Shown here: piece after piece, positions 20,014-50,984 of the stretch | How the letters are laid out: each line of letters begins with the position of its first letter | How positions within the stretch are numbered: position 1 is the stretch's first letter | From: Amoebidium appalachense | Lineage: Eukaryota > Protista > Ichthyosporea | Length of the DNA: 64,000 bases | Direction: 5' to 3' | Assembly: GCA_963693365.1 (NCBI GenBank) | Contig: CAVNZM010000007.1 | Coordinates: 2,837,979 to 2,901,978, forward strand | The notes under the pieces: model-generated | The model's database searches: none | The model's input: the letters and a program-made list of their open reading frames with translations, nothing else | What the model was told of the DNA's origin: nothing | Program-made: the position numbers and the translations under genes

Positions 20014-20375
20014 TTGGATTAGTCACGTGGCCTGGTAACTTTGAGATCACACCACACCAACCACCTCCGATCCGATCGCGATCAATCTATTTCCCACTTT
20101 CCACTTTTCCCACTTAAAATCGAAAAAGAGAAAAAAAAAGGAGACAAAACAAACGATACAGCATTACCCACTTTTAAGTGGGTAAGTGGCCAATGACAAC
20201 AAACACTTATCGATTTAAACCTAAAACACAACCATATAGTACTAGGGAACGGGGAACGGGGACATGCCAGGCACACGCGGCACACGAGGCACAGGAGGCA
20301 CACGCGGCATGCGAGGCGCGCGTGCCTGCCAGGGGCCTCCCCGCCCCGCCCAGCCACGCCCAGCCCCGCCGGTGA
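20014..20375 (+). repeat. Left terminal inverted repeat of the large element
   Basis: TTGGATTAGTCACGTGGCCTGGTAACTTTGAGATC...CAGCCCCGCCGGTGA matches the reverse complement of 50624-50984 apart from a few substitutions and indels. Confidence 0.95.
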
Positions 20376-21004
20376 GAGAGAGAGAGCAGAGAGAGAGAGA
20401 GAGAAAGAAAAAAGCTAAGTCTACACGAGAGAGAGAGAGAGAGAGAAAAGAGAGAGAAAGAAAAAAGCTAAGTCTACACGAGAGAGAGAGAGAGAAAGAA
20501 AAAAGCTAAGTCTACACGAGAGAGAGAGAGAGAGAAAAAAGCTAAGTCTACACGAGAGAGAGAGAGAGAGAGAAAAGCTAAGTCTACACGAGAGAGAGAG
20601 AGAGAGAGAAAAGCTAAGTCTACACGAGAGAGAGAGAGAGAGAGAAAAGCTAAGTCTACACGAGAGAGAGAGAGAGAGAGAAAAGCTAAGTCTACACGAG
20701 AGAGAGAGAGAGAGAAAAAAGCTAAGTCTACACGAGAGAGAGAGAGAGAGAAAAAAGCTAAGTCTACACGAGAGAGAGAGAGAGAGAGAAAAGCTAAGTC
20801 TACACGAGAGAGAGAGAGAGAGAGAAAAGCTAAGTCTACACGAGAGAGAGAGAGAGAGAGAAAGCTAAGTCTACACGAGAGAGAGAGAGAGAGAGAAAAG
20901 CTAAGTCTACACGAGAGAGAGAGAGAGAGAGAAAAGCTAAGTCTACACGAGAGAGAGAGAGAGAGAGAAAAGAGAGAGAGAGAAAAAAGCTAAGTCTACA
21001 CGAG
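20376..21004 (+). repeat. Subterminal tandem array, ~16 copies of AAAAGCTAAGTCTACACG(AG)n, mostly 36-bp period
   Basis: The core GCTAAGTCTACACG starts at 20505, 20541, 20577 ... 20829 (exact 36-bp steps). An inverted array lies at 49138-49621. Confidence 0.95.
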
Positions 21005-21037
21005 TTAGTAAGTCTTGACCCGGGCAGGGGGGGGGGG

Positions 21038-21230
21038 GCACGTGAGGCAGGTGAGGCAGGTGAGGCAGGGGGGCAGGTGAGGCACGTGAGGCAGGGGGGG
21101 GCAGGTGAGGCAGGTGAGGCAGGGGGGCACGTGAGGCACGCGAGGCAGGGGGGGGGGGGGGCAGGGGGGGCACGTGAGGCACGTGAGGCACGTGAGGCAG
21201 GGGGGGGCACGTGAGGCACGTGAGGCAGGG
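21038..21230 (+). repeat. 9-bp GAGGCA[C/G]GT repeat cluster (many CACGTG/CAGGTG E-box-like hexamers)
   Basis: Repeated GGCACGTGAGGCAGGTGAGGCAG is read directly. Confidence 0.75.
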
Positions 21231-21484
21231 GGGCCGGGGGCGCGGGGGGGGGGGGGGGGGTTATTTAAAAAATATTCACCAAACATATCGAGTAACAACA
21301 CAATGAAACTTTTTACATATATATATATATATATTGACAAGCCAAGTCGATATAAGAAACAAGCACAGAAACACATATGCATACTAATAGAAGCCGAATC
21401 TACTGTTAAGACTAAGAACACGCATACATCGACACTAATGACATGATTTACATCCGTGTAACACATCGTAAAGCAACACAAAAC

Positions 21485-22693
21485 CTATTCATCAGGCTTT
21501 GACTCGTCTTCGATTCTCTTCTGCCAGGCCGCAATTTTAAACTGTTTAGCCTGCTCCTGTGTCAATATATTCTTCTTTACCAGTTTACAAATATTCTTGC
21601 AAGTATCCATATATTCAGAAAATGCACGTTTTCTACTCTCTGGGTTATTACAGTCGGCAATGTTGTTGGGTGCGGGCGATTGGGGCAAGGGAGCCGACTT
21701 AGACTTCTTAGACTTCTTGGGCTTAGACGTCTTGGGCTTGGAGTGCTTTTGAACACCGGCATTCGCGATCTTCCGAAGTGCCTCGGCAGTCCCGGGGGGG
21801 GTCTTGCCCACCGATGGAATCGCCAACTTGCGGCCAGTGGTCTTACTGATCCCATTAGAGACGACGGGCTGAGCGACAGGCGGACGATCTTGAGTGGTGT
21901 CATCGTCAGAGGAAACATCGATCGGAGCGGTTTGGGGGTCGGCGATTGGATGGCGTGACTCGACAAAGATCGGATTGCCCAGTTCATCGAACATAGCAAA
22001 CCGCGAGGCTGGCACATCGATAACCACGTTGTCCTGGCTCTCACGATTCTTCTGCATAAGACTGTAGAACTCTTTGAGACAGATAGCCCCCTTGTTGTCA
22101 TCGTTGTCATCGTTGTCATCGTTGTCATCGTCATCAGATGAAGACGAAGACGACGACGATTCGGTATCAGACCTACTACTGGAGCTCCTTGCCGAATTGT
22201 GATCACCCGCCTTAGTATCATCTGGGTCTTGCTCGGCCATCTCGGTGTCGACATCTTGAGGCGGGGCGATGGGGGCGACATCTTGAGGCGGGGCGATGGG
22301 GGCGACATCTTGAGGCGGGGCCATGGGGGCGGCACCCATAGACTGGGCGAGATCACCGGCACGTGATTCGACATTCCGAGCAATCTTGGCGTTGCGGTTG
22401 CTACTCTTGCAGTAAGAAACGATGGCGGTCCTCAGACTCTCTTCGTCTTCTGAAGTGAAACCCCTCGGGTATTGCGGTATCCCTTCAGGTAACATACACT
22501 TGATAGCAGAAAGGATTTCCTTGAGCCCCTCGTCGTGGGTATAGTCGGCAAAAGTAGCCATCAGATCACGGACAACACATCCGAACCCAGCAACGCGCAC
22601 AAGGTTTTTGACATTCCTAGGAATGGCAAGGGCCGCCTCGATTGCAGCACCATCAACCCCCAAGTCGTAGTCTCGAGAGCTAAGGTTAGACAT
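21485..22693 (-). CDS. Hypothetical protein (~402 aa from MSNLSS); acidic/Ser-rich middle, 3x APPQDV repeat, Lys-rich C-terminus
   Basis: Long intronless ORF with non-random composition. No recognisable domain; the start codon is inferred. Confidence 0.7.
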   Translation of the reverse strand: MSNLSSRDYDLGVDGAAIEAALAIPRNVKNLVRVAGFGCVVRDLMATFADYTHDEGLKEILSAIKCMLPEGIPQYPRGFTSEDEESLRTAIVSYCKSSNRNAKIARNVESRAGDLAQSMGAAPMAPPQDVAPIAPPQDVAPIAPPQDVDTEMAEQDPDDTKAGDHNSARSSSSRSDTESSSSSSSSDDDDNDDNDDNDDNKGAICLKEFYSLMQKNRESQDNVVIDVPASRFAMFDELGNPIFVESRHPIADPQTAPIDVSSDDDTTQDRPPVAQPVVSNGISKTTGRKLAIPSVGKTPPGTAEALRKIANAGVQKHSKPKTSKPKKSKKSKSAPLPQSPAPNNIADCNNPESRKRAFSEYMDTCKNICKLVKKNILTQEQAKQFKIAAWQKRIEDESKPDE

Positions 22694-22929
22694 GTTGAAA
22701 ACAGCCTCGTTGAGAGCTAGAGTAGATGTGAAGAGAAAGCTGCGACTGTAGGATGAGCATACTGACACACACGCAACACTTCTTATAGCCAGGAGACACA
22801 CAACGTAGCGACAAAAACAAAGTATCAAGAGACATCCATTAATTGGACCGCCCGGTTTAAGATTGTTGTACACCAATCACAGAAGGAGGATAAAATAACA
22901 AAAAAAAACAACAACAGAAATATCACACA

Positions 22930-23978
22930 TCAGATTGCGCGTTCGACACGATAGGGTCTTCGAACTCTTGACCACACGACCACGCCCCAACCGCGCGTTC
23001 CGATTTGTCGCCACACAGAACCCGTGTTTCCGTCCCACCAATCAGATTGCGCGTCCGACACGACAGGGTCTTCGATGATGCTCCTACTCTTGACCGCAGT
23101 CCCGTCACCACGACCACGCCCCAACCGCGCGTTCCGATTTGTCGCCACACAGAACCCGTGTTTCCGTCCCACCAATCAGATTGCGCGTCCGACACGACAG
23201 GGTCTTCGATGATGCTCCTACTCTTGACCGCAGTCCCGTCACCACGACCACGCCCCAACCGCGCGTTCCGATTGGTCGCCACTCAGAAACCCGTGTTTCC
23301 GTCCCACCAATCAGATTGCGCGTCCGACACGACAGGGTCTTCGATGATGCTCCTACTCTTGACCGCAGCCCCGTCACAACGACCACGCCCCAACCGCGCG
23401 TTCCGATTGGTCGCCACACAGAACCCGTGTTTCCGTCCCACCAATCAGATTGCGCGTCCGACACGACAGGGTCTTCGATGATGCTCCTACTCTTGACCGC
23501 AGCCCCGTCACCACGACCACGCCCCAACCGCGCGTTCCGATTGGTCGCCACACAGAACCCGTGTTTCCGTCCCACCAATCAGATTGCGCGTCCGACACGA
23601 CAGGGTCTTCGATGATGCTCCTACTCTTGACCGCAGCCCCGTCACCACGACCACGCCCCAACCGCGCGTTCCGATTGGTCGCCACACAGAACCCGTGTTT
23701 CCGTCCCACCAATCAGATTGCGCGTCCGACACGACAGGGTCTTCGATGATGCTCCTACTCTTGACCGCAGCCCCGTCACCACGACCACGCCCCAACCGCG
23801 CGTTCCGATTGGTCGCCACACAGAACCCGTGTTTCCGTCCCACCAATCAGATTGCGCGTCCGACACGACAGGGTCTTCGATGATGCTCCTACTCTTGACC
23901 GCAGCCCCGTCACCACGACCACGCCCCAACCGCGCGTTCCGATTGGTCGCCACACAGAACCCGTGTTTCCGTCCCACC
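22930..23978. repeat. 134-bp tandem array (7 full units plus partial units) between divergent ORFs
   Basis: CAGAACCCGTGTTTCC recurs at 23016, 23150, 23284 (+1 nt), 23419, 23553, 23687, 23821 and 23955. Units carry CCAATCAG, GATTGG (most units), CCACGCCCC and CGCGCG motifs. Confidence 0.95.
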
Positions 23979-24064
23979 AGACTAGCCGATTGGCGTGTCT
24001 GTTACGAGACCAATAATTTGTTGCTCGGGCGGTGTCGATATTTTCACAGCAATGATAAGCAGAA

Positions 24065-25045
24065 ATGTCAACCGACAACGAAGAAATTCTAAGCGGAATT
24101 CGGAATTCACTGAGCGCCACACACGATGACATCGTCAGATTGTTATCGGAAATACCAAAAGAAAGCGACACCGCTGGATCGGGAACAGTTGGGGGTGGCA
24201 CTGATGTCGACGACCCAAACAAAATAGACGACATTAAAAATATAATAAACATGTTTAACAGAACCTCCACACAGACACTCAAAATTTTGAACCATTTCAC
24301 GACGATGGCTGCTCATTTGCAACCAGGCACAACAGAAAAAACCAAAGACGATCCACTCGAGAAGGGATTGGAAAATATCATGTCGCAAATAAGCAATGCG
24401 ATCAAGCTCTTAAATAATCAGAACAGGCTTATAAATTCATTACAAGAGACGGAAAAGGATAACATTAGGCTTCACCACGAACTCGCCAATTACAAAAGAC
24501 TCTACCAGGAAAATAACGAACCCCAACAGAAAACGGCCACATCGAGGGACCCAAACATCCATAGAATTGCATTTCTGGATGTACACGGCGGCCGCGTATT
24601 CACACACGGATCGTCTCCGTGGATGACATACGACGGGACAGTTCACGGGGCAATATCTTCAGGACTGATCCACTTCTCTGGAGACAAACAGAGCCCTTGT
24701 TGGACCGTCAAGGGTGCTTTTGAAGGCACATATGTTGCGTTTCCACTGCACGACTGTGGAACGGTCACGGCCGTCAAATCCGGCTCGACAACAATCTCAA
24801 AAACACTGGCGAGATGCGAGTCTTTCTTCGACGACAAAGCATTTGCATGTGCATCCCTCAAGGCATACCAAGTGACACTCGCGTCAAGCCGAACAATCGC
24901 GACCCTCACGACAAATTTCTTTGTCGGCCACGAACGCAAGCTCGACCCGTACGCACAATCCACAACACAAACGCAACACACACATGGCTGCCCTGCAAGG
25001 GACGCCGCACCCACCCGAGGATACATCGAATCAGTGGTCATATGA
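24065..25045 (+). CDS. Hypothetical protein (326 aa), N-terminal coiled-coil and beta-rich C-terminal part
   Basis: Intronless ATG-initiated ORF with a heptad-like stretch (LEKGLENIMSQISNAIKLLNNQNRLINSLQ). Confidence 0.7.
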   Translation: MSTDNEEILSGIRNSLSATHDDIVRLLSEIPKESDTAGSGTVGGGTDVDDPNKIDDIKNIINMFNRTSTQTLKILNHFTTMAAHLQPGTTEKTKDDPLEKGLENIMSQISNAIKLLNNQNRLINSLQETEKDNIRLHHELANYKRLYQENNEPQQKTATSRDPNIHRIAFLDVHGGRVFTHGSSPWMTYDGTVHGAISSGLIHFSGDKQSPCWTVKGAFEGTYVAFPLHDCGTVTAVKSGSTTISKTLARCESFFDDKAFACASLKAYQVTLASSRTIATLTTNFFVGHERKLDPYAQSTTQTQHTHGCPARDAAPTRGYIESVVI

Positions 25046-25349: not shown

Positions 25350-26660
25350 TCACTCGATCTTCCACCGAAAAACCTGAAAGATACTCCCTCCATCGGCGGT
25401 CACGTGTGCCCCCAAAACAACGAATCGACTGGCGACACTCATGGTCAGCGCGTGCACGACACCATCCAGAAACACGCCATGCTGGCTGACAAGACGCACC
25501 ACATCGTTAACGCCGACTTCGTATATCAGCACATCGCTATCCCCTCTACTGAAACCCAGGCGACCAACATACAATCGGTCGCCCCCGCGGCACAACACCG
25601 TCCTCTCGTACATATCCACCCAACAAGTACATAACGCACGCTTGGCAAAGTATCGATGTGTGGGCTCGAGGGGTGCCTTTGAACAGAATGCACACCCGAC
25701 TTCATCACCGCACCAATGAGGTCTACAAGTCGTCAGCATATCCACTCTGCATTCCCCAAGAAGTCGGCCGTCCCGCAGACCGATCGCGTCCACCACCGCG
25801 AGCGTCCCGTCCTCACCTGGCGCATGATTGTGGTACAGAACACGGATATCGACACTCGACACCGACAACACCCCCATCGCGCCCATCCACCCACCCAGAC
25901 AGACACTCCAGTTCCGCGCACCCGTGACCCAATCAACCGACACAACAAACGTCGATCCTCGCTCTCCCCGACACAACACAACAAGTGAGTCGCCCACAGA
26001 ACACGGATGCTCGGAGACCACATGTCGGTCCATCGACCAAAGCGGCAACCCGGGTCCTTTCCCAGCCCCGGCAGTACCGGTCCCATATCCCCGGAGCTGC
26101 GGACAGGCCCAGTCACCCAGATCTGGGCTGCTGTGGATCAAAAATACCACGACCCCGTGGCGACCGCTGTATCCAACGAGACGCGCACCGGTTACATCGA
26201 ACGGCAGCAAGACGTCCAGCGCGAGTATGTCACCCGACGCGGCCCCAACCCGCCTATCCGCGTTTGCACTGCCCGGTGACGCGCGCAGCAACGCTGATTG
26301 GCCAACGCCAGGTTCCGCGCGATGGCGATTAACCAACGAGATTGTACATTTGCCCCACACAACAAACGTCGGATAATCGACTACCAGCACGACGTACGCT
26401 GTGGTCAACTCGCAAAACCGCGCCAGACCAGCGCTCGCGAAGCCAACGGGGCCCGTCTCAAGGCTCCACCTCTCGACACCCCCAAATGGATTGTAGGCAC
26501 GGGGTCGGGCTAGGAACACGGAGGCTCCTTCGACAGGATGGTTGAAAAAGCACAGCGGCACACAACTCGCCCCGGTCGTCGCAAAACGCATCTTGGGGTT
26601 CACACGGACAAATCCAACCAATGATCGAAACGTCGGGCTCGCGGTCGATGACATCGTCAT
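25350..26660 (-). CDS. Hypothetical protein (436 aa), possibly beta-propeller-like
   Basis: Long intronless ORF. The segments VVSVDWVTGARNWSV and VDAIGLRDGRLLGE resemble PQQ-type propeller blades (weak). Confidence 0.6.
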   Translation of the reverse strand: MTMSSTASPTFRSLVGFVRVNPKMRFATTGASCVPLCFFNHPVEGASVFLARPRAYNPFGGVERWSLETGPVGFASAGLARFCELTTAYVVLVVDYPTFVVWGKCTISLVNRHRAEPGVGQSALLRASPGSANADRRVGAASGDILALDVLLPFDVTGARLVGYSGRHGVVVFLIHSSPDLGDWACPQLRGYGTGTAGAGKGPGLPLWSMDRHVVSEHPCSVGDSLVVLCRGERGSTFVVSVDWVTGARNWSVCLGGWMGAMGVLSVSSVDIRVLYHNHAPGEDGTLAVVDAIGLRDGRLLGECRVDMLTTCRPHWCGDEVGCAFCSKAPLEPTHRYFAKRALCTCWVDMYERTVLCRGGDRLYVGRLGFSRGDSDVLIYEVGVNDVVRLVSQHGVFLDGVVHALTMSVASRFVVLGAHVTADGGSIFQVFRWKIE

Positions 26661-26764: not shown

Positions 26765-27653
26765 GGCCCGGGTACCATATCAGGAGCGGGCAATTTTTGA
26801 ATTCTCCCTCCCCGGCCCCGCCGGGGAAAATTTGAGGTTTTTGGACCTCAAAGAAGTCAAATCCTGCAAAATCCACTACCGGGAGGCCAAAAAGGGTGAT
26901 TTTACAAAAAAGGAGGGACATACATGAAAAAGAGAAAATGGGCGAGTTCAGTGGGCTGCCGATAAGTATATTTCGTGCTGGGCCGGTATACATGCTGCCG
27001 TGGTTGTTGCTGTAGACGGCAGTATGGCATCGCATGTGTCACGTGACCTGCACGTGAATGCGACCATGTGCAGGCACTGAGTCTAGGGGGATTTGTATGT
27101 GTGTTTTGGAGCACCGACAAGGCAGAGCCAGGGTGAGGGATGTGTAAACATGGAGTTTAGGGAGATCGTGCTGCTATTGTAACATGTGCACAAAACAGCC
27201 ACGTGCACCGGCACACTCCGGTGTACAGAACAATAATATGCACATGCGTCACTGTAATATCATGTATGCGCATGCCGCACAAGGTTTAGGAGACCACCAC
27301 AGTATATACTATTTTCTTTTGGTTGATATCCATGTAGGAATGGTGTGTTGCAGTTGTCATGATCAGCCTGAGGCAGGCACGTGCACTCACTGAATCACTA
27401 GAACTCATGAATAAAAAATACATTCGCTAAAAACGGCAAGGTAAATTTGGGGCCAAGCTATTATTTCCCCCTTTTAAACGTTTTTTTAGCTCCAAGAACT
27501 TCGACGCCAAAATTTCTATATTTGGCCATCGTATATGATAATGAACACGTGTACTTAAATTAAAGTAGTTATATAAATATGAGCGGCCCGTTACAAATAC
27601 AGTGACGAAAAACAGTGACCCACGAGCAGTTTTTCTTTCTATCCCCCCCCCCC

Positions 27654-27684
<31 letters not shown>

Positions 27685-29019
27685 ACACACACACACCAGA
27701 CACACACACCACCACCACGGTGACCACCACCACCACCACCACCACCACTCACCCCTTAAAAAAACCACACACATACGTGCACGTGTACACACACACACAG
27801 AACACCACCACCACCTCCACTGGACCCCATTTCCTCGTTGTTTTCTTAAGCCTTCAGACCAGTCCTGCACACTGGAGTTAAACAATTGAATTCACCTAGG
27901 CTGACATGCATCCACCCCCGCCTTCCACTTCCCTCCCCCCACCCCCTCCCCCCACCCCCCCCACCCCCACCCCCTCCCCCTCGATGAAGAAGGGCCCCCG
28001 TAAGCCTTGGGGGGGGGGGGGGGGGGGAGGGGGGGGGGAAGGGGGAAGGGGGGAGCTCTTGAGCCTCCGGGTAGGGAAGTGGGGTCCGGGGATCCGGAGA
28101 GGGGAGGGGGGGGGGGGGGGGGGAAGGGGCATATAATATTGGGCCTAGATATCATAGTATGGGGCCCCGGGGGAGGGAGAGGTGGGGGGGGGAGGGGGGG
28201 AGGATCCACGGGAAAGACCTTTAGGTGCATGTTCTTATTTATACCCCCTTCGAATCATCCCCCTCTCCCCCCCCCCCCTCCCCCCTGAGTGCAGGCCGTG
28301 ACGTAGCTACGATAACCCTGCAGAAGGCAACAAAAATGTATTAATTACTAGCACTATACATGTGTTCATAGTGCAGCTTGCACCACGTATGATCTCAGCA
28401 ACTTTAAAGTAGTCACAAAGTTTAGTTATTTTCATTATTTTCATTGCTCTGAACTCTATTACTCTGAAATGATCACCGTGCATGTGCCGCAAGATAACAA
28501 CCCTATATGTGTGCAGCTGCTGCCTGCAGGTTAGACTCGCTGAAAAGACAATTGTCAGTGTGCATCCGACGCTTGCAGCTGCAGCTAGCCTCTGCAACAT
28601 TAATACTTGCCAAGTGAATGCTCTTACACTTGATCATCATTCACTCAAAAAACCGAGGACCGACAGATTAAATATTAATGTCGATCCGAATGATCAGCAA
28701 GTGTCTATGCGTACTACTATATATACACACACGTAAAATGCGAAGCTATCAGTTACAAGGCACACCTGCTGCACTGGCACACATACACATACACACCGGC
28801 AGATCGATGCTGTCAAAATTTACTTTCATGTACTTCGTAGGTCCGACACAGGTGCACATGAACACGTACATATGTACAAGCCGCGCACACACCACACCAC
28901 ACATACACACACACACACACACACTCACACACACACACGCACACACGCACACACGCACACACGCACACACGCACGCACGCACGCACACACACACACACAC
29001 ACACGCACGCACGCGCGCG

Positions 29020-29083
<64 letters not shown>

Positions 29084-29409
29084 GACACACACACACACAC
29101 ACACATCACTGGGTGCGCTCGCTGGGGATTAGTTTTTTGGCACGCTGTTGACTTTATCGTGTGTTTATTATTTGCTATTTATTGGCCAGCGGCCAACATT
29201 TAAAAATATACTATATACCTAAAAATAGATACTGACTACGGCCAGCAGACATTATACACCTTCCAGGACACATTAACACCAATAGTCTAACACACCATAC
29301 TCTCGATCACAAAGAATTCCTAACAAACAGAGAAAAGTGCAAAGGCTCTGTACTATTACTCAGATTCTAAATTTTAATTCTTTACAGTAAACTTCGGAAT
29401 GAAAGCTAG

Positions 29410-29445
<36 letters not shown>

Positions 29446-31191
29446 CATGACTGTACGAAGAACAGGTATAACTTGAAGCACTACAACACATATGAGATCC
29501 GTTACATTGGTGTACATTCCAATATTAGACACTAGTTTGGCTACTCTGACTACTCTGAGATCCTGATTGGCTGCCTGCAGACTTGCGGCCACGATTACTT
29601 TGCTTTCGATCGTGCCATTGCAGCTGCGTCTCTCCAGCAGGTGGCAACGCCAGGCCCAGCACAGCAGATGCACGAGAAGGGGGTGGGAACTGCCCACCAG
29701 CCGAGGGCTGGCCCACATGGCCCAAGTAAGGATGGGGACCGTGCTGCGGCAGTAGCCCAGGCATGGGGAAGGCAGGGCCGGGCTGAGGCGGCATGATGCC
29801 CCACGGTGGGGGCCAGCCATGTGGGTGGTGCGGGCCTGGATGGGGTGCAGGGGGCATGTGCGGCACATGGCCCTGCTGCATGTCAAGCGCGGGTGCTGGT
29901 GGCATGGCATCCTGATTGGCTGCAACCCAACGTGGGCAGCTCTTGGCCCGATTGGAGCCGGGGCAGCCCTTGCCCTGGCGGCCACACGTCTTGCAGGTCT
30001 TGGGGGCTCTCTGGGGTGGCTGCATAGGAGGGGGCACCGGCAAATCCATCTGCAGGGGCCCCTCAGGGCCAATGTTGCGATGCTTTTTGCCCACTAGCAT
30101 GGGCAAGGGCCGCTCACGCTGCGCCCCTGCATCGACACCGTCTGGAACAGGGAGGGGTGGCAAGGGGGCAGGCCGTATGGTTGCTGGCACAGCGTCTGCC
30201 CTCTCCTCGCGCATACGCTTGCGGTGATCTGCCAGGCCCTCGTGTGTGGAGCGCTGTGCATGTGCCGTCTGCCAGGTCTTCCACTTGTCGAAATGCTTCT
30301 TGATGTAGGCCGCATCCTTCATGTAGATTCCCCCAGCCACAGAGGCAGCCTTGTTGAAGTCTTGGGCCAAAGCCTCGAACAGCTGGCCGTTGGGCTTTGC
30401 ATGTGCCTTGTAGGTGCCCAGGAGCAGCGTGCTGAATAGCTTGCGCTCCTGAGGGGTAAGCACCGGAAGGAAGGGGATGGCCACATGTTGCTTCTGCGCC
30501 AGGAACTTGTAGTCGCCCCTCAGTGCAGGGTCCGGCTGTGGTGCACCACGCGCCACCTGGTTGCCCCCCCCCATGGCAGCACCGTCACCCTCCTCGACCT
30601 CACAGTCCTCTGGCCCGCCCATCACGCCATTGGCTGCAGGCTCGATGTTATCAGACGGAGGTGGGGGTGCGGGCACCGCAACTGGCTCCTGCGCCGGGGC
30701 ATTGGCCACACAGGAGAGCGGGGCAAAGTTGAAGTACTCCTCCGGTAGCTTGTAGCAGCCTACGGGTACCCACTGGGGGTCGAGGTGATGGCCGTACAGC
30801 ATCAGCGCCAGTGCCTCCATGTCGTCAACAATCCAGGGGCTGTAGTGGGGGGGCCCCGATGCCTGGCCCAGGCGGTTGCGGTAGTGTGCACGCAGGTTGT
30901 GGCGGTGGCGCCTATTGGACATGGTGGCGTCCAGCAGGCGCAGCGACATGCGTGTGGCCCCAAAGTGGGTGGCCAGGGGGTTGTGCACTGCCCCCTCCAC
31001 CTCGTTGGTGCCCCGGATGCAGCGGTAGCGCATGAGCCCATCTGCGTCGGCAGTGGTCTCGTAGTAGAGGGGCAGGCCGGGGGGGTCCGACAGACAGCCA
31101 TTTTGGGCGTGTTCGAGCAGCGACTGTGGGGGCACAAGCAAACATCAGAGAGATGGGTGGGTGGTGGTGGTGGTAGTGTGTGTGTATGTGT

Positions 31192-31238
<47 letters not shown>

Positions 31239-31310
31239 TGGGGTTGCTAAGGAAAAAAACGAGCAGGGAAAGGCAAAAAACAACTGGCTAGGCAGCAAGG
31301 GCCGTGCGGG

Positions 31311-41240: not shown

Positions 41241-41496
41241 TGCATAATATATTAACCATAAAGCAGTCATGGTGTCACAGGATCCATTTTCACCCACCAT
41301 ACAGGCACCTGGCCTCCCGGACCAGCACACTTACACAAAAAAACAAAATTTGATAAAGCGGTACCTGTTGATGCTCTATCTTACCGTACATCCCTTTGTC
41401 GTATATATACTGCCGATGCCGCTACTGCGGCTGATGGCCGGGGCCGGGGTGTAGTCGGTGGATTGTGTCCATCTATACACACACTGCCCTGCGAGC

Positions 41497-42153
41497 TTAT
41501 ATAAAATCGGGAATGTGACAAATCGCTGTGTCTTGGTCCTCTGTCTCCCATCCCTGCAGCTCGTGATCTGCACGTATGTCTAACACTTTGGCCTGAAAAC
41601 TCATTAATGTCTTGCCGTGCTTGGCCCACCACTCCTTGTCGCGCGGGATCTCGTCGATGCGCAGCGACCCGTCGCGCGGGTCGAACTGCACAAAGTCCGC
41701 GACCTCCAGCCCCAGCACAAACAGCTGTGTCTGCACCTGCGCCACATAGTGCTCGGGGATCGGCTGTCCGTCCATGAACTTGCGCTTGTACGGCACCTTG
41801 ATCTCCACCGCGCGCCCGCACAGCGTCACCCGGTCCGGGCTCGCCCCCAGCCACCGGTGCTCCGCGTGCCGGATCAGCCCAAGCTCGATGCACGAGCGCC
41901 CCGTCGCGCGCATGTACGCGTCCGCTGCGTTGGCCTCGTGCTTGTGTCCGAATGCCACGAACACGGGGTCCACGACCCGCCGCTTCAGCCCGGACATGTG
42001 CTCGATCAGGTCCTTCCGCGTCTCGTACGGGTTCACCCCCAGCGCGGCGCCCACGTCCGAGGCCGTGAGCATGGATGCGCGGGCGCGCAGCCACTGTGTA
42101 CTTCCCTGTGGGTAGGGAATCTCGTTTTGTTTCAGACGCTCGATGAAGTCCAT
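41497..42153 (-). CDS. YqaJ-like viral recombinase / lambda-type alkaline exonuclease (~218 aa)
   Basis: QGSTQWLRAR..MLTASDVGAALG.NPY, FGHKHE, LGASPD, VEIKVPY and IPEHYVAQVQTQL form the PD-(D/E)XK YqaJ signature. Confidence 0.93.
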   Translation of the reverse strand: MDFIERLKQNEIPYPQGSTQWLRARASMLTASDVGAALGVNPYETRKDLIEHMSGLKRRVVDPVFVAFGHKHEANAADAYMRATGRSCIELGLIRHAEHRWLGASPDRVTLCGRAVEIKVPYKRKFMDGQPIPEHYVAQVQTQLFVLGLEVADFVQFDPRDGSLRIDEIPRDKEWWAKHGKTLMSFQAKVLDIRADHELQGWETEDQDTAICHIPDFI

Positions 42154-42350: not shown

Positions 42351-43733
42351 TCAGACAAAGCGGATGTCGTCGTCCCCGTACACCTCCTTGAACGCGTTTG
42401 ACACGCGCACGTAGTCCGCCGCGAACATCTCGCGCTTGTTGCCCACCATCACGCGCACCTGCTTGAGCTGGTTCTGCACCAGCTTTTCGAACTGCTCCGC
42501 CTCGTTCTTGTTGCGGTGGGGCATACATATGATGATGAGCTCCTTCATGTCGTGGGACCACAGGTCATACTTGTAGCGCTGGAAAAGCGAGTTGCCCGTG
42601 TGCCCGATCTTAATGTAGCCGTCGATGTGCAGCGCATACACGCACGCCCCACCGGCCGCCTTGAGCGACCAGTCGAAGTTCAGCTGCCGCCAGGCCACGA
42701 AGTGCACGTCCAGACCCTTGAGCTCGGCCTTCATCTCGCGCACTGCCTTCACCATGGCAAGCGTCGAGTCGATGCCCCGCTGGATCGTGTCCTGCTTGGC
42801 CCGCTCCTGTCGCTCTACCTCCTCCGCGCGCTTGACCGCCGCGAGTGCCTCGGGGCAGTAGTTGGTGCAGATGTCGCGGTGCGCGGTGGTGATGAACTTG
42901 TTGAGTTGCTCGAGCGCGGTGTCGAAATCCACTCCCGGCTTGAACCAGTTGCCCGGTTCCAGCATCGCGTCCAGCGGGTTGCGCTTGGCCACCTGCTGCT
43001 CCCCGTCGTCTTCGCGCTCACGCTTGCCCGCGCGCGGGCCCTCCGCGTCCGCGGCCTCCATGTCGATGTGCACGGACTTGGTCTTGGCCCCGTCGCCGCG
43101 TCCTTGGTCGGCGATGCGCACCAGGTCCGCGAAGTAGTCCATCTGGCCCAGGTGCGACTTGACCATCACGTTGTCCCAGAAGTCCCGCAGCGCGGGAAAG
43201 CAGTAGCGCAGAAACGGCGCGGTCAGCTCGAACGCGAACCAGGTCCCGCGGTACATCTCGATGGCGGGTATCAGACCATGCGTTGCGAAGGCGGCGACAG
43301 AGCCGTCCGGGTTGCCCACGGCGGGTAGTTTCTTGATGTTTGCAAAGGTAGGGCGAATCAACCAATCGGAAGACACAACAGAGGACGTTAGGGCATCCCC
43401 TAATGTCGTCTGGGACGCCTGCACCACCGAAACAACCTTCGAAATCGTATTTGCATTGTCCTTTTTCCAGTCAACCGGGTTCTTCCTCACACCCGCCTCC
43501 TTGCTCCCGAGCGACGCGGAGTACCCCGCGTTGAAGAACACGTGCCCGTCGAACTTCGTCAGGTACGTCAGCACCTTCTCCCCGTCCGGCGCGAAGAACG
43601 GGCGCACGCCGGGCCACGCGGGTACCGACGACGTGTCCACGCGCGACTCGTGGCCCGCGGGCGGGCGCCAGTCGGGGCCAAGAGCCTGAGGGGTGGGAGA
43701 GTAAGAGGGTGGGGGAGACGTGTTTGAAGTCAT
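42351..43733 (-). CDS. KilA-N/APSES-like DNA-binding domain fused to T5orf172 (GIY-YIG-like) domain (460 aa)
   Basis: N-terminal DGHVFFNA...KNPVDW...RGTWFAFELTAPFLRYCFP is KilA-N-like. C-terminal GACVYAL..DGYIKIGHT..L.QR...EKLVQNQLK..R....REMF is T5orf172-like. Confidence 0.75.
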   Translation of the reverse strand: MTSNTSPPPSYSPTPQALGPDWRPPAGHESRVDTSSVPAWPGVRPFFAPDGEKVLTYLTKFDGHVFFNAGYSASLGSKEAGVRKNPVDWKKDNANTISKVVSVVQASQTTLGDALTSSVVSSDWLIRPTFANIKKLPAVGNPDGSVAAFATHGLIPAIEMYRGTWFAFELTAPFLRYCFPALRDFWDNVMVKSHLGQMDYFADLVRIADQGRGDGAKTKSVHIDMEAADAEGPRAGKREREDDGEQQVAKRNPLDAMLEPGNWFKPGVDFDTALEQLNKFITTAHRDICTNYCPEALAAVKRAEEVERQERAKQDTIQRGIDSTLAMVKAVREMKAELKGLDVHFVAWRQLNFDWSLKAAGGACVYALHIDGYIKIGHTGNSLFQRYKYDLWSHDMKELIIICMPHRNKNEAEQFEKLVQNQLKQVRVMVGNKREMFAADYVRVSNAFKEVYGDDDIRFV

Positions 43734-44006: not shown

Positions 44007-45482
44007 TCAATCGCCGTCGACGAGCACAATATCCAATTCCGGCAGCACCTGCTCCTGGTAGTAACGACCAAGGGCGTAATCCTTGCCCTCGCGGACGTCG
44101 TGGACGTACCATGTCGGAACCTCGGGTCCCCACAAGCTGGTTGGGTTCAGCTCCGCATCCCTGTGCTGTTGGAGTGCGTGTGCAAACCCAGGGGGCATCG
44201 TTTCGCCGCGCCGCCATTCAATATTGATCTTGAATGCAAATAGCTCGATGTAGTCCGCGGTGTATGCCATGTCATCGTCAAACTTTGTAAACGCGGGGAG
44301 AACAGTATTTGCCGCCGACAGGAAATCCCGCACTGCCAGTGGCTTGGGCTGTCTTTCGATCAGCCCTTTGAGCTCTCCGGCAAAGCTGCCTGTGCCCGAG
44401 GGTGACTGAAAAATCTCCCGAATGCGCCGAGACATTGGCGCCATCGCAGCCTGCTTGATTAGATTGAGGATGTCCGATGTGGAATACGACTTGAGAAACA
44501 TCCAGTACGCCAACTTCTGCAGGGCCTCTCGCGGGGTGTGAACCCCGTCATTAACTACTAGCAGCGTTGGGTCGACGCTCAGGGGATACTCCGCTTGGAA
44601 CTCGTCCAATTTTTCCAATATCAGTTCGAGGATGTCGATCGGTAGCGGCAGGTCAACAAACACGCGAATGGGAAATCGCCTCAGAATCGCCCGGTCCAGG
44701 TCGAACGGCAGGTTTGTCGCGGCCACATACAGCATATGGTCATTGTTCTTGCGCAGCCCGTCGTACTCCGAAAGAAACTGGTTTGTGATCTTGTACGAGT
44801 TGCCCGACCCGCTCGCACTGTTGCGGTTTCGGGAGCCCAGTATCGACTCGGCCTCGTCCAGAAACATGACAGTGGGACGCAGGCACCTTGCGAGCGAAAA
44901 CACCGCCTGCACCGCCTTCTCCGAGTTGCCCTCCCACTTTGAGTTGAGCACAGCCGACGACACGTTCATAAACGTCGACCTGCCCACCTGCGCCAACTTG
45001 CTCGCAATAAACGTCTTGCCGGTCCCGGGTGGACCAAACATCAGAATTCCCCGCCCAGGCGTTCGCAGGCTGCGGAACAGTTCGGGCACAAATCGTGGAA
45101 CAATAACGGTTTCAAAAAGCTTCTGCTTCGCCTCCTTCAGCCCATTAATGTTCATAAACTCTGCCAGGTCCTCGTCGCGTGGCTCGAGGCCGTCACCGTC
45201 GGGCGGGAAGACGATCTGTCTGATTGGGGTCGTGATCTCGCGGTTTTCTACGTCGTTGTGGATACTGGCAAAGATATCGCAGTTGGTCATGTAGTCCTTG
45301 TACAGCGCGTCCCTTTGCTCCGGTGTCAACTTGCTTGAAGCCCCCACCGCGTCCGCACGGTCCCTTGTACGGTCGGCGGTCAGCTGCCAAATCCCAGAGA
45401 ACCATGAGGTGAGCGGGTCATCGTCCTCCGGCTCCTCGGTTCTGGCACGTTTCGGGGGTCTGCCGCGCGGGCGTGAACTCAT
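44007..45482 (-). CDS. AAA+ ATPase, Vps4/katanin/spastin ('meiotic') clade, intronless, no MIT domain (~491 aa)
   Basis: INGLKEAKQKLFETVIVP, GILMFGPPGTGKT (Walker A), SKWEGNSEK (pore loop), VMFLDEAE (Walker B) and AATNLPFDLDRAILRRF (SRH). Confidence 0.92.
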   Translation of the reverse strand: MSSRPRGRPPKRARTEEPEDDDPLTSWFSGIWQLTADRTRDRADAVGASSKLTPEQRDALYKDYMTNCDIFASIHNDVENREITTPIRQIVFPPDGDGLEPRDEDLAEFMNINGLKEAKQKLFETVIVPRFVPELFRSLRTPGRGILMFGPPGTGKTFIASKLAQVGRSTFMNVSSAVLNSKWEGNSEKAVQAVFSLARCLRPTVMFLDEAESILGSRNRNSASGSGNSYKITNQFLSEYDGLRKNNDHMLYVAATNLPFDLDRAILRRFPIRVFVDLPLPIDILELILEKLDEFQAEYPLSVDPTLLVVNDGVHTPREALQKLAYWMFLKSYSTSDILNLIKQAAMAPMSRRIREIFQSPSGTGSFAGELKGLIERQPKPLAVRDFLSAANTVLPAFTKFDDDMAYTADYIELFAFKINIEWRRGETMPPGFAHALQQHRDAELNPTSLWGPEVPTWYVHDVREGKDYALGRYYQEQVLPELDIVLVDGD

Positions 45483-46030: not shown

Positions 46031-47071
46031 CTACAGGTTCACCCGTCTGTCACGAAAATGATACTTAAACGTGTGGCCCTCGAACGGGAATTTGGACTCC
46101 ATGGTGTCCACGTCACAATCCAGCTCGTACACTCTGCATGGTGCAATACAAAGCACCTCCTTCCTGGTAGCATCCATTTGCAGCATCTGCCGCGACAGCA
46201 CCCCCAACCCGAAGTGCTGGCCGAGCGCAATGTAAATCTGGAGGTAGAACGCATCCTCGCTGCCCACCGCCCTTCGCCCAACCACCGCTCCGGCCCTCCA
46301 CTTCCCGTGCTCGTCGATCTTGGCCTCGACCCAGTCGCCTTGGACGATGATGTCCAGGGGCAGAAAGCGCTCGGCCAGCTTCCGCTCGGCCAGCAGGTAG
46401 TAGAGACCCAGGCGCAGCGCGGGCTGCCCACAATGAAGCACCGGCCAGACCTCAAACATTTCTACCGTCCTGGCCTCCTCGACGCTGGCCAACGTGTTCA
46501 ATGCGTACACGGAACACTGCTCGTCCGGCACCGGTGCCGCGCGGACCGTCGCGCTCTCGACGACCTGGTGGAGCGGCCGAACCACGGTCGGAGCCGCCAT
46601 CGCCTGCCCAAGCCTCACACCCCAGACGTGCTCCGTCTCCTCGACGGTGATCACCTCGACGTCGTCCACATCGTCGAAGTCGGGGTGGGGGCACTTGCGG
46701 AGGAGAAACCCGAGGCCCGTGTCGTCGGGGATGAGGCTGCGCAGCGCCGGCGCCTGGAGCTCGTCGTACAGTGCACGCCACCCCGCGCTGCCACGCCCGA
46801 CGAAGTAGGGGTCGGGAGGTGTGTAAGTGTCCCGCTGGGTCCACCGCCCCTCCTCGTCGACGAACTGCCGCGCTACCGGCCCGGAGAGGATGACGTCGAC
46901 CGGCCACACCCTCTCCTCCCCCGTCTTCGTGCTGTAGACGGCGGCAGTGCCCATGCGGATCGAGCCAGGCGCCTCGGGGTGCAGGTGCAGCGTGTAGAAC
47001 AGGTCCGGGTGGTAGGCGAACCGGGGCTCGCGGTCCTCACCGAGAATGTGAATACGCTCAATGTGCGTCAT
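46031..47071 (-). CDS. Hypothetical protein copy 1 (~346 aa), C-terminal Tudor/Agenet-like barrel possible
   Basis: Intronless ORF MTHIERIHIL. VQGDWVEAKIDEHGKWRAGAVVG resembles Tudor-type barrels. A highly similar paralogue lies at 47788-48891. Confidence 0.7.
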   Translation of the reverse strand: MTHIERIHILGEDREPRFAYHPDLFYTLHLHPEAPGSIRMGTAAVYSTKTGEERVWPVDVILSGPVARQFVDEEGRWTQRDTYTPPDPYFVGRGSAGWRALYDELQAPALRSLIPDDTGLGFLLRKCPHPDFDDVDDVEVITVEETEHVWGVRLGQAMAAPTVVRPLHQVVESATVRAAPVPDEQCSVYALNTLASVEEARTVEMFEVWPVLHCGQPALRLGLYYLLAERKLAERFLPLDIIVQGDWVEAKIDEHGKWRAGAVVGRRAVGSEDAFYLQIYIALGQHFGLGVLSRQMLQMDATRKEVLCIAPCRVYELDCDVDTMESKFPFEGHTFKYHFRDRRVNL

Positions 47072-47787: not shown

Positions 47788-48891
47788 TCACGAAAATGCA
47801 TGCTTAAACGCGTGGCCCTCGAACGAGAATTTGGACACCATGGTGTCCATGTCACAATCCAGCTCGTACACTCTGCGTGGGTCAACTTCAAGCACCTCCA
47901 CCCTGGTAGCATCCATTCCCAGCATCTGCCGCGACAGCACCCCCAACTCCATGTGCTGGTCGAGCGCAATGTCAATCTGGAGGTGGAACGCATCCTCGCT
48001 GCCCACCGCCCTTCGCCCAACCACCGCTCCGGCCCTCCACGTCCCGTGTTCATCGATCTTGGCCTCGACCCAGTCGCCTTGGACGATGACGTCCAGGGGC
48101 ACAAAGCGCTCGGCCAGCGCCCCCTCGGCCAGCAGGTAGTAGAGACCCAGGCGCAGCGCGGGCTGCCCACAATGAAGCACCGGCCAGACCTCAAACATTT
48201 CTACCGTCCTGGCCTCCTCGTCGCTGTCCAACGTGTTCAATGCGTACACGGAACACTGCTCGTCCGGCACCGGTGCCGCGCGGACCGTCGCGCTCTCGAC
48301 GACCTGGTGGAGCGGCCGAACCACGGTCGGAGCCGCCATCGCCTGCCCAAGCCTCACACCCCAGACGTGCTCAGTCTCCTCGACGGTGATCACCTCGTCG
48401 TTGTCGTTGTCCACATCATCGAAGTCGGGGTGGGGGCACTTGCGGAGGAGAAACCCGAGGCCCGTGTCGTCGGGGATGAGGCTGCGCAGCGCCGGCGCCT
48501 GGAGCTCGTCGTACAGTGCACGCCACACCGCGCTGCCACGCCCGACGAAGCGGGGGTCGTCACAGGCCCCCGCTTCATCGCAGGCCATCGCTTCGTCGCA
48601 GGTCATCGCTTCGTCGCAGGCCATCGCTTCGTCGCAGGCTGTGGAACTGTCCCGCTGGGTCCACCGCCCCTCCTCGTCGACAAACTGCCGCGGTACCGGC
48701 CCGGAGAGGATGACGTCGACCGGCCACACCCTCTCCTCCCCTGTCTTCGTGCTGAAGATCGCGGCGGTGCCCATGCGGATCGAGCCGGGCGCCTCGGGGT
48801 GCAGGTGCAGCGTGTAGAACAGGTCCTCTTGGTAGGCGAACCGGGGTTGGCGGTCCTCACCGAGAATGTGAATACGCTCAATGTGCGTCAT
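47788..48891 (-). CDS. Hypothetical protein copy 2 (367 aa) with 4x (A/T)CDEA(M/G) insertion
   Basis: Paralogue of 46031-47071 with the frame conserved despite indels. An 18-nt repeat lies at ~48560-48640. Confidence 0.7.
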   Translation of the reverse strand: MTHIERIHILGEDRQPRFAYQEDLFYTLHLHPEAPGSIRMGTAAIFSTKTGEERVWPVDVILSGPVPRQFVDEEGRWTQRDSSTACDEAMACDEAMTCDEAMACDEAGACDDPRFVGRGSAVWRALYDELQAPALRSLIPDDTGLGFLLRKCPHPDFDDVDNDNDEVITVEETEHVWGVRLGQAMAAPTVVRPLHQVVESATVRAAPVPDEQCSVYALNTLDSDEEARTVEMFEVWPVLHCGQPALRLGLYYLLAEGALAERFVPLDVIVQGDWVEAKIDEHGTWRAGAVVGRRAVGSEDAFHLQIDIALDQHMELGVLSRQMLGMDATRVEVLEVDPRRVYELDCDMDTMVSKFSFEGHAFKHAFS

Positions 48892-49137: not shown

Positions 49138-49591
49138 TTTTTTCTCTCTCTCTCTCTCTCGTGTAGACTTCGCTTTTTTCTCTCTCTCTCTCTCGTGTAG
49201 ACTTAGCTTTTTTCTCTCTCTCTCTCTCGTGTAGACTTAGCTTTTTTCTCTCTCTCTTTCTCGTGTAGACTTAGCTTTTTTCTCTCTCTCTCTCTCTTTT
49301 TTCTCTCTCTCTCTCTCGTGTAGACTTAGCTTTTTTCTCTCTCTCTCTCTCTTTTTTCTCTCTCTCTCTCTCGTGTAGACTTAGCTTTTTTCTCTCTCTC
49401 TCTCGTGTAGACTTAGCTTTTTTCTCTCTCTCTCTCTCGTGTAGACTTAGCTTTTTTCTCTCTCTCTCGTGTAGACTTAGCTTTTTTCTCTCTCTCTCTC
49501 TCGTGTAGACTTAGCTTTTTTCTCTCTCTCTCTCGTGTAGACTTAGCTTTTTTCTCTCTCTCTCTCTCGTGTAGACTTAGCTTAGACTTAG

Positions 49592-49621
<30 letters not shown>
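49138..49621 (-). repeat. Right subterminal array, ~12 copies of (CT)nCGTGTAGACTTAGCTTTT (inverse of 20376-21004)
   Basis: The core CGTGTAGACTTAGC is the reverse complement of GCTAAGTCTACACG. Confidence 0.95.
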
Positions 49622-49627
<6 letters not shown>

Positions 49628-49749
49628 CACCCCGCGTGCCTCCCGTGCCTCCCGTGCCTCCTGTGCCTCCCGTGCCTCCTGTGCCTCCTGTGCATTCCCC
49701 GTTCCCCGTTCCCCGGCCTGTTTCTGATTGGTTTCTTGTCTTTACTTTA

Positions 49750-50592
49750 TTAGGCAAACAGGCGCGTGATGCTGTTGGTCGGGACACACAGCTTGCCGGT
49801 GGGTCGGGCAGTGACGTCAGCCACGAATCCGGGCGCGATGATTGGCTTCACTTCCGGCTCTGGAATGTGTGGCTCCATCAACACCTCGAAGTCTTGCACC
49901 ATGCTTGGGTCGGTCCAGCCACGTGCCTGTGTGCAGTAAACACGCCAATGGGCTCTCGCCACGTGCACGGCCTCCGTGTAGTCGGTGTATGTGCCGATCT
50001 TGTGGTATTGCCCTTTCTTGTGCACCATTGGAAACCGCACCTCGAAGAAACCTTCGCGGGTGTTCACAAACCGGCATGGCTGCCCTGTGATTCGTCTCTT
50101 GAACTTGTTATAGGCCTTTGGTCGCGGGCAGAGATTGGTCCGTCGGTTGTCCTTTACTGATTGGTTTCGGTGATCGATCTCGAAGTCCGTACTCGCGGTG
50201 ATAATGCCCTGGAAATAGCACACCAACTGGTGTGCAGCCGGTGACTCAGCCACGTGTTGATTCCAGCCCGGTAGGTAGAGTCGTAGGTAGCCTTTGGTAT
50301 CGCGTACCCAGCCCACATGTGTTGCCCAGGTCATGTCCTCCTCGGAAAAACACCAATCGATTCCGCCCATTCTTATCGTATCCGTACCCACCGCGTGCAT
50401 CTCATTGGCTTCACTCCACGTGTTCATCACCGGCTCATCGTTTGCGTCATACCAGAACAGGCTGAACCCACTGCCCTTCTGAATGTTGCTGTTGTACCAT
50501 GTTATTAGTTGTAAAGGCTTGTATATGCCCAGAGCAACCAGAAATTTGCACCATTGTGGCGCGTTGTGTATTTCATCATCCATGATCGCCAT
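49750..50592 (-). CDS. HNH endonuclease with C-terminal AP2-like domain (280 aa)
   Basis: AHQLV...EIDHRNQSVKDNRRTNL (HNH_3-type), followed by FEVRF.....HKIGTYTDYTEAVHVA (AP2-like), as in phage and viral HNH-AP2 homing endonucleases. Confidence 0.85.
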   Translation of the reverse strand: MAIMDDEIHNAPQWCKFLVALGIYKPLQLITWYNSNIQKGSGFSLFWYDANDEPVMNTWSEANEMHAVGTDTIRMGGIDWCFSEEDMTWATHVGWVRDTKGYLRLYLPGWNQHVAESPAAHQLVCYFQGIITASTDFEIDHRNQSVKDNRRTNLCPRPKAYNKFKRRITGQPCRFVNTREGFFEVRFPMVHKKGQYHKIGTYTDYTEAVHVARAHWRVYCTQARGWTDPSMVQDFEVLMEPHIPEPEVKPIIAPGFVADVTARPTGKLCVPTNSITRLFA

Positions 50593-50623
50593 TCATGTCT
50601 ATGCACACATAATATTTTTCACA

Positions 50624-50984
50624 TCACCGGCGGGGCTGGGCGGGGCTGGGCGGGGCGGGGAGGCCCCTGGCAGGCACGCGCGCCTCGCATGCCGCGTGTG
50701 CCTCCTGTGCCTCGTGTGCCGCGTGTGCCTGGCATGTCCCCGTTCCCCGTTCCCTAGTACTATATGGTTGTGTTTTAGGTTTAAATCGATAAGTGTTTGT
50801 TGTCATTGGCCACTTACCCACTTAAAAGTGGGTAATGCTGTATCGTTTGTTTTGTCTCCTTTTTTTTCTCTTTTTCGATTTTAAGTAAAAAAAGTGGGAA
50901 GTGGGAAATAGATTGATCGCGATCGGATCGGAGGTGGTTGGTGTGGTGTGATCTCAAAGTTACCAGGCCACGTGACTAGTCCAA
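50624..50984 (-). repeat. Right terminal inverted repeat of the large element
   Basis: Reverse complement of 20014-20375; ends ...GGCCACGTGACTAGTCCAA. Confidence 0.95.

Follow-up and report, generated by a model that had tools for sequence, protein, structure and literature searches.

What kind of element occupies positions 20014–50984 of the 64,000-nucleotide stretch of Amoebidium appalachense contig CAVNZM010000007.1 analyzed here (the window)? The interval is bounded by long terminal inverted repeats (TIRs) and was originally predicted to be an integrated element with giant-virus accessory genes, of a class that could not be placed. We judge, with slightly better than even confidence, that it is the genome of a linear Nucleocytoviricota-like virus, deleted internally but with both ends retained, which would need a helper to replicate or integrate. 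On the features tested, the element fits a TIR-bounded relic of a giant endogenous viral element (GEVE): both TIR ends are present around a shortened viral interior, and genes of Nucleocytoviricota type are found. An integrated, TIR-bounded element with such accessory genes is supported by the ends, by the loci of relatives of its YqaJ exonuclease and by the family scans. Among the options of the original prediction, the best fit is a linear virus with an internal deletion and both ends preserved. The statement that its class could not be placed was overstated; relics of punuivirus GEVEs are a published precedent.

Ends of the element

The predicted near-identical TIRs of ~360 bp were recovered. 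The pair (20014–20375 and 50984–50624) has 355 identities in 361 aligned bases, with 6 mismatches and 1 gap (98%), and appears in a self-BLAST of the window at 366 bp and 97.8% identity (E 3e-178). The inverted subterminal arrays were also recovered; a 14-bp core common to both occurs in 16 copies on the left (20414–20989) and in 11 inverted copies on the right (49194–49568). A cassette with an HNH gene (49625–50623) interrupts the right inverted repeat between the TIR and the array; next to this gene, at ~49625–49715, lies sequence that aligns with the inner TIR segment as a second, degenerate copy. By its placement, the HNH gene looks as if it had been inserted into an inverted repeat of ~1 kb. 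Read from the sequence, a perfect 10-bp hairpin lies inside each TIR (20165–20186 and 50813–50834), and several short palindromes are located near the element ends; these are possible protein-binding or origin sites.

The original picture omitted a 293-bp hairpin element at 19719–20011, which resembles a miniature inverted-repeat transposable element (MITE). Its 112-nt arms are 98% complementary, its fold has a z of −26.7, and it has TA on either side. Its first 35 bases match those of the giant element at 22 positions without gaps (binomial P 5e-6); when the first 7 bases are left out, 15 of 28 match (P 0.002). After the giant element's own ends, the hairpin ends are the best matches to the giant end in the window. 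This likeness favours termini at 20014 and 50984. The signature TTGGAY...TGGTAA is found at the ends of both elements, and the hairpin element, which is non-coding, is the only other element in the window with this signature. A count of the motif gave four matches, which are all four ends; since these ends had supplied the motif, the count is circular. A further TATTGGATTA is located directly left of the hairpin element, at ~19704. The possibility that the hairpin element is a resolved viral telomere was ruled out, as its arms are not the TIR.

A transposon nested in the element

The 31-kb interval consists of two kinds of DNA. Two virus-type core blocks (21300–26730 and 37510–49100) have observed/expected CpG ratios of 1.19 and 1.06 and no poly-C/G runs of at least 15 letters. 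Between them, the segment 26730–37510 has a ratio of 0.48–0.49 and 21 such runs, resembling the flanks, whose CpG ratio is 0.54–0.61. An exact 8-bp direct repeat (26757–26764 and 37783–37790) bounds an 11-kb segment that makes up 36% of the interval. The gene within this segment is in pieces and bears introns; Pfam recognized DUF6729 (E 1.6e-18) along with a 3'-5' exonuclease (PF01612, E 4e-15). In addition, a contig of the public sequencing run X9 begins to match the window only at 37783; before that point it carries 1606 other letters. These letters may be the left core block. The host-like composition, the split gene, the 8-bp duplication and the break in the X9 contig together indicate that a DNA transposon of host type is nested in the element. 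The original prediction overlooked it, and it inflates the size of 31 kb. Without the nested transposon the element measures 19,945 bp and is 65% coding; without its internal duplication as well, it measures 18,111 bp. The predicted array of about 12 packed intronless open reading frames (ORFs) stands, as 12 intronless ORFs without internal stops are present. The interval is not uniform, however, because of the host-like transposon.

Target site duplications (TSDs) of 8 bp are described as typical of Zisupton and hAT transposons in the available text of PMC12730594. The nested transposon is like the Zisupton/KDZ- or Mutator-like transposons treated there in its 8-bp duplication and its short imperfect TIRs. 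It differs from them in carrying DUF6729 with a 3'-5' exonuclease, and the six exon frames scanned had no KDZ or MULE match in Pfam, nor one to a hAT transposase. The term DUF6729 was not found in a text search of the open literature, so the nested element may represent an undescribed transposon lineage. Its right part (36500–37782) occurs in many variant contigs, with a summed depth far above that of its surroundings in runs X2, X17 and X18. We considered whether the nested transposase had moved the whole element; this was ruled out because its ends differ and it has an 8-bp duplication of its own.

The intergenic DNA of the core blocks has a further property. The motif CCAAT[CG] occurs at 10.9 per kb in 22694–24064 against 0.7 per kb in the flanks, and four of five intergenic stretches tested had 11–18 per kb, the fifth having none. 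This enrichment suggests promoters for host RNA polymerase II and a nuclear life. A CCAAT-rich array of 134-bp units (Table 1) would be a candidate origin or enhancer.

The hairpin element raises an alternative, namely that the giant element is a non-autonomous cut-and-paste DNA transposon with captured giant-virus cargo, mobilized by the same host transposase as the hairpin element. The original prediction had likewise offered a non-autonomous transposon or satellite, and the variant contigs described below and the end-sharing hairpin speak for this option. The hairpin has the anatomy of a MITE, being short, near-palindromic and flanked by TA on both sides (criteria as given in the available part of PMC4495683), and a TA duplication would fit inner termini at 20022 and 50976. 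However, the ends of ~1 kb, composed of TIR plus satellite, and the intronless, CpG- and CCAAT-rich interior look like one viral piece rather than captured fragments. The natural cargo of TIR transposons is usually small, as far as PMC6431247 describes it, and pairs of autonomous elements and MITEs typically have ~83% TIR identity (PMC4495683, available text), as opposed to 63% over 35 bp here. Moreover, the transposase nested in the element has different ends and its own duplication. We consider a cargo transposon unlikely.

Genes and class of the element

The coordinates of all features are collected in Table 1. The predicted YqaJ exonuclease is well supported by Pfam. In the predicted KilA-N/T5orf172 protein, T5orf172 is above the Pfam cut-off, whereas KilA-N was recognized only in a homologue (P0012; E 5e-5, 23.5 bits against a cut-off of 23.8) and falls just below it. 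The predicted HNH-AP2 protein retains its HNH part by PHROG, with Pfam HNH_3 below its cut-off, and no AP2 match was obtained. The ATPase has Walker A and B motifs and the second region of homology; its best NCBIfam match is CdvC (E 1e-40, below the cut-off of that model), and its best matches in the PDB are VCP/Cdc48 and spastin. It is therefore a classic AAA ATPase of the Vps4/Cdc48 type, and its identification as the A32 packaging motor was ruled out. The YqaJ, Vps4-like AAA, T5orf172 and HNH proteins are accessory, and none is a known integrase. The DUF5760-like assignment of the original prediction was seen only as a match below the cut-off (Table 1).

Families of capsid, protein-primed DNA polymerase (pPolB), integrase, recombinase, helicase and A32 ATPase matched none of the 12 ORFs in Pfam, PHROG and NCBIfam. 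None of 96 further frames matched a family in Pfam, whether of capsid, polymerase, integrase, recombinase or any other kind. From 243 stop-to-stop frames of at least 50 aa, 117 had been chosen, and these 96 remained once 11 that belong to main ORFs and 10 that are repeat or antisense were set aside. Pfam has models for these core genes. Thus, the statement that pPolB, integrase, capsid and A32 are not recognizable was borne out. The core genes of Nucleocytoviricota (major capsid protein, PolB, A32, VLTF3 and D5) are likewise absent from the matches of the 12 ORFs and 96 frames, the set to which the class tests below refer. No A32/FtsK packaging ATPase was found, the classic AAA protein being the sole ATPase. 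The double jelly-roll major capsid had no profile match, and the models of two orphan proteins both have a predicted local distance difference test score (pLDDT) of ~30, too poor to show a fold. Nothing recognizable is encoded for the element's own copying, packaging or integration, yet its ends are intact.

Other classes of large elements were compared on the same set. The DUF3435 tyrosine recombinase, which defines Starships by its place at their 5' end (PMC11162782, available text), was not matched. There was no Pfam match to a Plavaka transposase or tyrosine recombinase, and the termini of the element differ from the Plavaka ends TGT or CATCA. Transpovirons are alike in being linear, TIR-ended, capsid-less and helper-dependent; they differ in their size of ~7 kb and in being defined by a Tlr1-like superfamily 1 (SF1) helicase (PMC5499653, available text). 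No such helicase, which is a feature of transpovirons and Tlr1, was found in the element.

Polintons, adintoviruses and Polinton-like viruses (PLVs) deserve a closer comparison, because the element could be a deletion derivative of one of them that lost the whole core module. They are 15–30 kb long, have TIRs and are integrated in protist genomes, according to the available parts of PMC5499653 and PMC10120064. The long TIRs typical of Polintons and adintoviruses are present. The un-nested length of 18–20 kb agrees with PLV-type endogenous viral elements of 15–30 kb (PMC10120064), as do TIRs that are a few hundred bp long. The terminal HNH cassette echoes HNH insertions in Tlr1 and PLVs (PMC5499653), and YqaJ appears in a figure legend that covers PLVs together with dwarf viruses resembling nucleocytoplasmic large DNA viruses (NCLDVs). 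On the other hand, 18–20 kb without any core gene implies a parent above the usual size. The element differs from these groups in that no pPolB, rve-type or tyrosine recombinase (YR) integrase, SF1/SF3 helicase, double jelly-roll capsid or A32, or a remnant of any, was detected, and its cargo is of NCLDV type. Such a derivation is, in our view, decidedly unlikely.

The orphan ORFs offer a different possibility: the element could be autonomous, or a small virus, with its capsid or recombinase encoded by ORF 25350, 46031/47788 or 24065 or by the N-terminus of ORF 38686. All ORFs are intact, and the homologues of the two-repeat proteins (46031 and 47788, 88% identical to each other) have diverged to 31–36% identity. 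In addition, divergent capsids were earlier overlooked in elements of B. natans, as told in the available text of PMC5499653. However, no packaging ATPase or polymerase was detected. The 25350 product leans to a propeller fold, which is a lead only: its Atlas matches, of low recognition, include a cluster in which 52% of the members have PQQ_2, so it is possibly a beta-propeller. It had no PDB sequence match, and its AlphaFold model has a pLDDT of 32. The two-repeat protein had no PDB match below E 0.1, and its model has a pLDDT of 29. For ORF 24065, residues 160–326 had no Atlas match, and a PDB sequence search gave nothing below E 0.08. The longest ORF (38686) encodes a low-complexity protein of 771 aa. 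In its N-terminal domain (38686–39000), a histidine cluster followed by PS..D is reminiscent of a degenerate JAB/MPN site; neither Pfam nor the PDB supports it. Cryptic autonomy thus has only a slim chance.

Table 1. Features of the element and its left neighbour, in window coordinates (TRF, Tandem Repeats Finder)
Feature	Position	Strand	Remarks
Hairpin (MITE-like) element	19719..20011	.	293 bp; abuts left TIR across TA
Left TIR	20014..20375	+	362 bp; outer limit 20014 or 20022
Left subterminal satellite array	20374..21004	+	GA-rich; TRF period 36, 14.5 copies
9-bp repeat tract	21037..21251	.	CACGTG-like units; TRF
Orphan ORF	21485..22693	-	402 aa; acidic/serine-rich middle; intact; no Pfam match above cut-off
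134-bp tandem array	22975..23979	.	7.5 copies; CCAAT-rich; TRF 99% matches
Orphan ORF	24065..25045	+	326 aa; coiled-coil-like N-terminal half; sub-cut-off Pfam matches only
Orphan ORF	25350..26660	-	436 aa; beta-rich; Atlas feature matches 0.81–0.83
Nested host-type DNA transposon	26765..37782	-	11,018 bp; split gene DUF6729 + 3'-5' exonuclease; imperfect ~23-bp TIRs
DUF5760-like ORF	37810..38235	+	141 aa; Pfam E 1.6e-4, 22.2 bits, below cut-off of 27
Low-complexity ORF	38686..41001	+	771 aa; orphan N-terminal domain, ER/EK-rich repeats, coiled coil; no family match
Small basic ORF	41004..41300	-	~98 aa; weak PHROG match of no assigned function, E 4e-4
YqaJ/lambda-type exonuclease	41497..42153	-	218 aa; Pfam E 3e-23; TIGR03033 above cut-off; motifs intact
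KilA-N-like + T5orf172 protein	42351..43733	-	460 aa; T5orf172 Pfam 23.3 bits, cut-off 20
Classic AAA ATPase (Vps4/CdvC/Cdc48-like)	44007..45482	-	491 aa; Pfam AAA E 2e-28
Orphan two-repeat protein, copy 1	46031..47071	-	346 aa; internal repeat E 1e-6
Orphan two-repeat protein, copy 2	47788..48891	-	367 aa; from ~1.8-kb tandem duplication
Right subterminal satellite array	49147..49623	-	TRF period 34; inverted relative to left array
HNH-type endonuclease ORF	49750..50592	-	280 aa; PHROG HNH E 2.5e-5; Pfam HNH_3 14.8 bits, below cut-off of 24.8
Right TIR	50624..50984	-	361 bp

Relatives of the proteins

Among the ten closest YqaJ proteins, nine are Logan-only sequences with 51–74% identity, and one is a JGI/ENA sequence with 42%. 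A tree had been proposed for YqaJ. In a quick tree of 87 rows, which gave long-branch warnings, the window protein forms one clade with the nine Logan-only proteins (SH-aLRT, the approximate likelihood ratio support, 99); its sister group was not resolved. More distant YqaJ relatives (26–45% identity) were found in 99 loci, three of which were annotated. One of these (L031) encodes VLTF3, PCNA, the P11 minor capsid protein and ribonucleotide reductase, and the others encode a type II topoisomerase (L001) and DUF5901 (L020). The neighbourhood of the annotated distant relatives is therefore a Nucleocytoviricota context. The giant-virus ribonucleotide reductase at L031:12214–15699 carries a Hint (intein) domain. 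A scan of viral contigs with the single YqaJ query gave no matches.

The T5orf172 protein has two homologues, both Logan-only. The two-repeat protein has two homologues among 1.84 billion representatives, and those looked up are Logan-only; a word-index search with ORF 46031 gave no match among 5640 candidates. An exact look-up in the protein collection returned none of ten element proteins.

Variant forms in public sequencing runs

Part of 43500–53000 is contained in 20 of 24 listed runs, and eight of these contain half or more of its words. None of the listed runs is given as RNA. Contigs of four runs (X2, X9, X17 and X18) were compared with 36500–54000 of the window; runs with a small share, X19 and X20 among them, were left aside. 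The core exists in several versions, with up to six contigs carrying another letter at one site. In X2 and X9, contigs with a joint at 47079–48914 remove the ~1.8-kb tandem duplication. These versions could be siblings of ~18 kb, longer viruses or strain alleles. In X2, four listed core contigs (399–775 letters) have depths of 35–102, as against 7–8 in several minor variant contigs; contig depth is not copy number, and the contrast gives a rough hint of several copies.

Some further observations concern the runs themselves. Eleven listed runs (X9–X16 and X21–X23) derive from one sample and hold only 1–3 million contig letters each; eight of them contain 18–47% of the element words and three at most 2%. 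In X9, unlike X2, the core and the nested transposon are covered to a similar depth. Contigs of X17 and X18 extend over the 771-aa ORF, where they carry variant letters. Cover is missing in parts of the comparison (YqaJ and AAA in X17 and X18, the TIR in X9); neither these gaps nor the depths were taken as evidence on expression.

The contigs also bear on the doubt that the element is false, produced by a wrong join in the assembly or by two fragments that do not belong together. None of the listed contigs of the four runs bridges the right junction, and at some sites the compared contigs lack the allele seen in the window, as contigs drop rare variants. Nevertheless, 98%-identical TIRs and mirrored arrays are present at both ends, the exact 8-bp duplication links both halves around the nested transposon, and the composition of the two halves matches. 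A false join is barely credible.

Comparison with giant-virus relics

By analogy, the closest precedent for the element is the set of TIR-bounded deletion relics of the punuivirus GEVE in Chlamydomonas reinhardtii (10.1101/2024.09.03.611062). In the available text of that report, relics of 48.2 and 5.28 kb have both TIR ends and 6-bp TSDs; the GEVE has satellite arrays in its TIRs and clean TSDs, and no candidate integrase is named even in the full GEVE. The window element is similar in having both TIR ends, satellite arrays and a shortened interior. The punuivirus, however, has ACC...GGT ends, clean 6-bp TSDs, TIRs of 10.8–14.8 kb and a full parent of 617 kb, whereas the window element has TTGGAY ends, TIRs of 362 bp, an ambiguous TSD and an end-sharing hairpin alongside, and no parent was found.

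A. appalachense itself contains medusavirus-related GEVEs of disparate lengths, none with a full core set and some with secondary transposon insertions (PMC11244446, available text, as are the following statements on them). Compared by description, the window element is like them in being an intron-poor island of viral genes in an intron-rich genome. It differs in that they are defined by VLTF3, A32, D5 and capsid genes, none of which was seen here. Terminal repeats are reported in that text only for adintoviruses. The gene ontology enrichment of these GEVEs for membrane fission and tubulin depolymerisation would fit a Vps4-like AAA protein. No description of a family of such relics, present in many copies, devoid of core genes and accompanied by a MITE with the same ends, was found in the open literature, including the available parts of PMC12210455 and 10.1101/2022.07.28.501842.

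A history consistent with these comparisons can be proposed. A TIR-ended virus would have integrated, or it would have been deleted first and then integrated as a defective genome. The deletion would have taken the capsid, polymerase and integrase genes, and the cis-acting ends and terminal accessory genes would have stayed, as in the punuivirus relics. The ends, with the signature also seen on the hairpin element, may be acted on in trans by the integrase of a full-length relative; if they are served in this way, related forms would be expected at more than one place. The nested transposon and the 1.8-kb tandem duplication would be later gains of this copy.

Several points weigh against a deleted giant-virus genome. 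There is no clean TSD at this one locus. An exact 6-bp GATTAT is found at 19709–19714 and 50985–50990, with the left copy 4 bp out of register when the hairpin element is skipped; a 10-bp comparison of the target repeat gives 8/10, and the TA duplication mentioned above fits the inner termini. YqaJ, HNH and T5orf172 proteins are also found in phages and other elements. The quick tree gave no donor lineage for YqaJ, its sister being unresolved, and the other 11 element proteins and the TIR had no match in the 99 YqaJ loci. Scans of viral contigs with the AAA, T5orf172, DUF5760 and two-repeat proteins and with a 24-mer of the TIR gave no matches, and no full-length parent was found in the viral contigs scanned. 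The orphan models are poor (pLDDT 29 and 32), and capsids as divergent as those once overlooked in B. natans (PMC5499653) bear on the missing capsid.

Other features of the window

The window contains no Ns. The flanks are host DNA, with exons of an aldehyde dehydrogenase, a YrhK-like ORF and an EGF exon (Pfam matches in 4 of 118 frames scanned). A diverged direct duplication (5636–6234 and 9739–10350, 79% over 625 bp) takes in the YrhK-like ORF. Just right of the element, 51110–51550 is a repeat of very high depth, and 16 X2 contigs carry other letters upstream of 51110. Beside the EGF exon, a GT..AG joint (53099–53903) is present in X17 and X18 and absent from X2; X17 and X18, which had been guessed to be DNA, may therefore be RNA. 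An Rfam scan of 19000–52000 gave no matches.

Implications

The relatives found for the element proteins, beyond the distant NCLDV kin of YqaJ, are Logan-only, which points to an uncatalogued virus lineage. The variant contigs and the hairpin with similar ends hint at a transposon-like spread of such relics. A bolder reading is possible, if somewhat unlikely: the element may belong to a transposon family that arose from a giant-virus-derived, helper-dependent satellite. Such a family would have a fixed unit of ~18 kb at many loci, lacking any enzyme for its own copying, packaging or integration. It would depend on an integrase acting in trans, which would mobilize the 293-bp MITE with TTGGAY...TGGTAA ends as well, and certain conditions would amplify it selectively or activate it.

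The element bears on the way in which giant viruses enter host chromosomes; the punuivirus GEVE has clean TSDs and, in the available text of its report, no candidate integrase (10.1101/2024.09.03.611062). If the satellite-turned-transposon reading is true, the ends described here would offer a way to the integrase that serves giant viruses with TIR ends. An ends-only relic together with a MITE-sized element with similar ends would delimit the minimal cis signal and turn the search for the enzyme into a testable problem. If the siblings prove to be only differently truncated relics, the element would be an ordinary but well-preserved example. If they have the ~18-kb layout in common at several sites, genomes of defective giant viruses are able to become non-autonomous transposons, and such transposons would spread viral genes, such as those for the Vps4-like ATPase and the YqaJ nuclease, through a eukaryotic genome.

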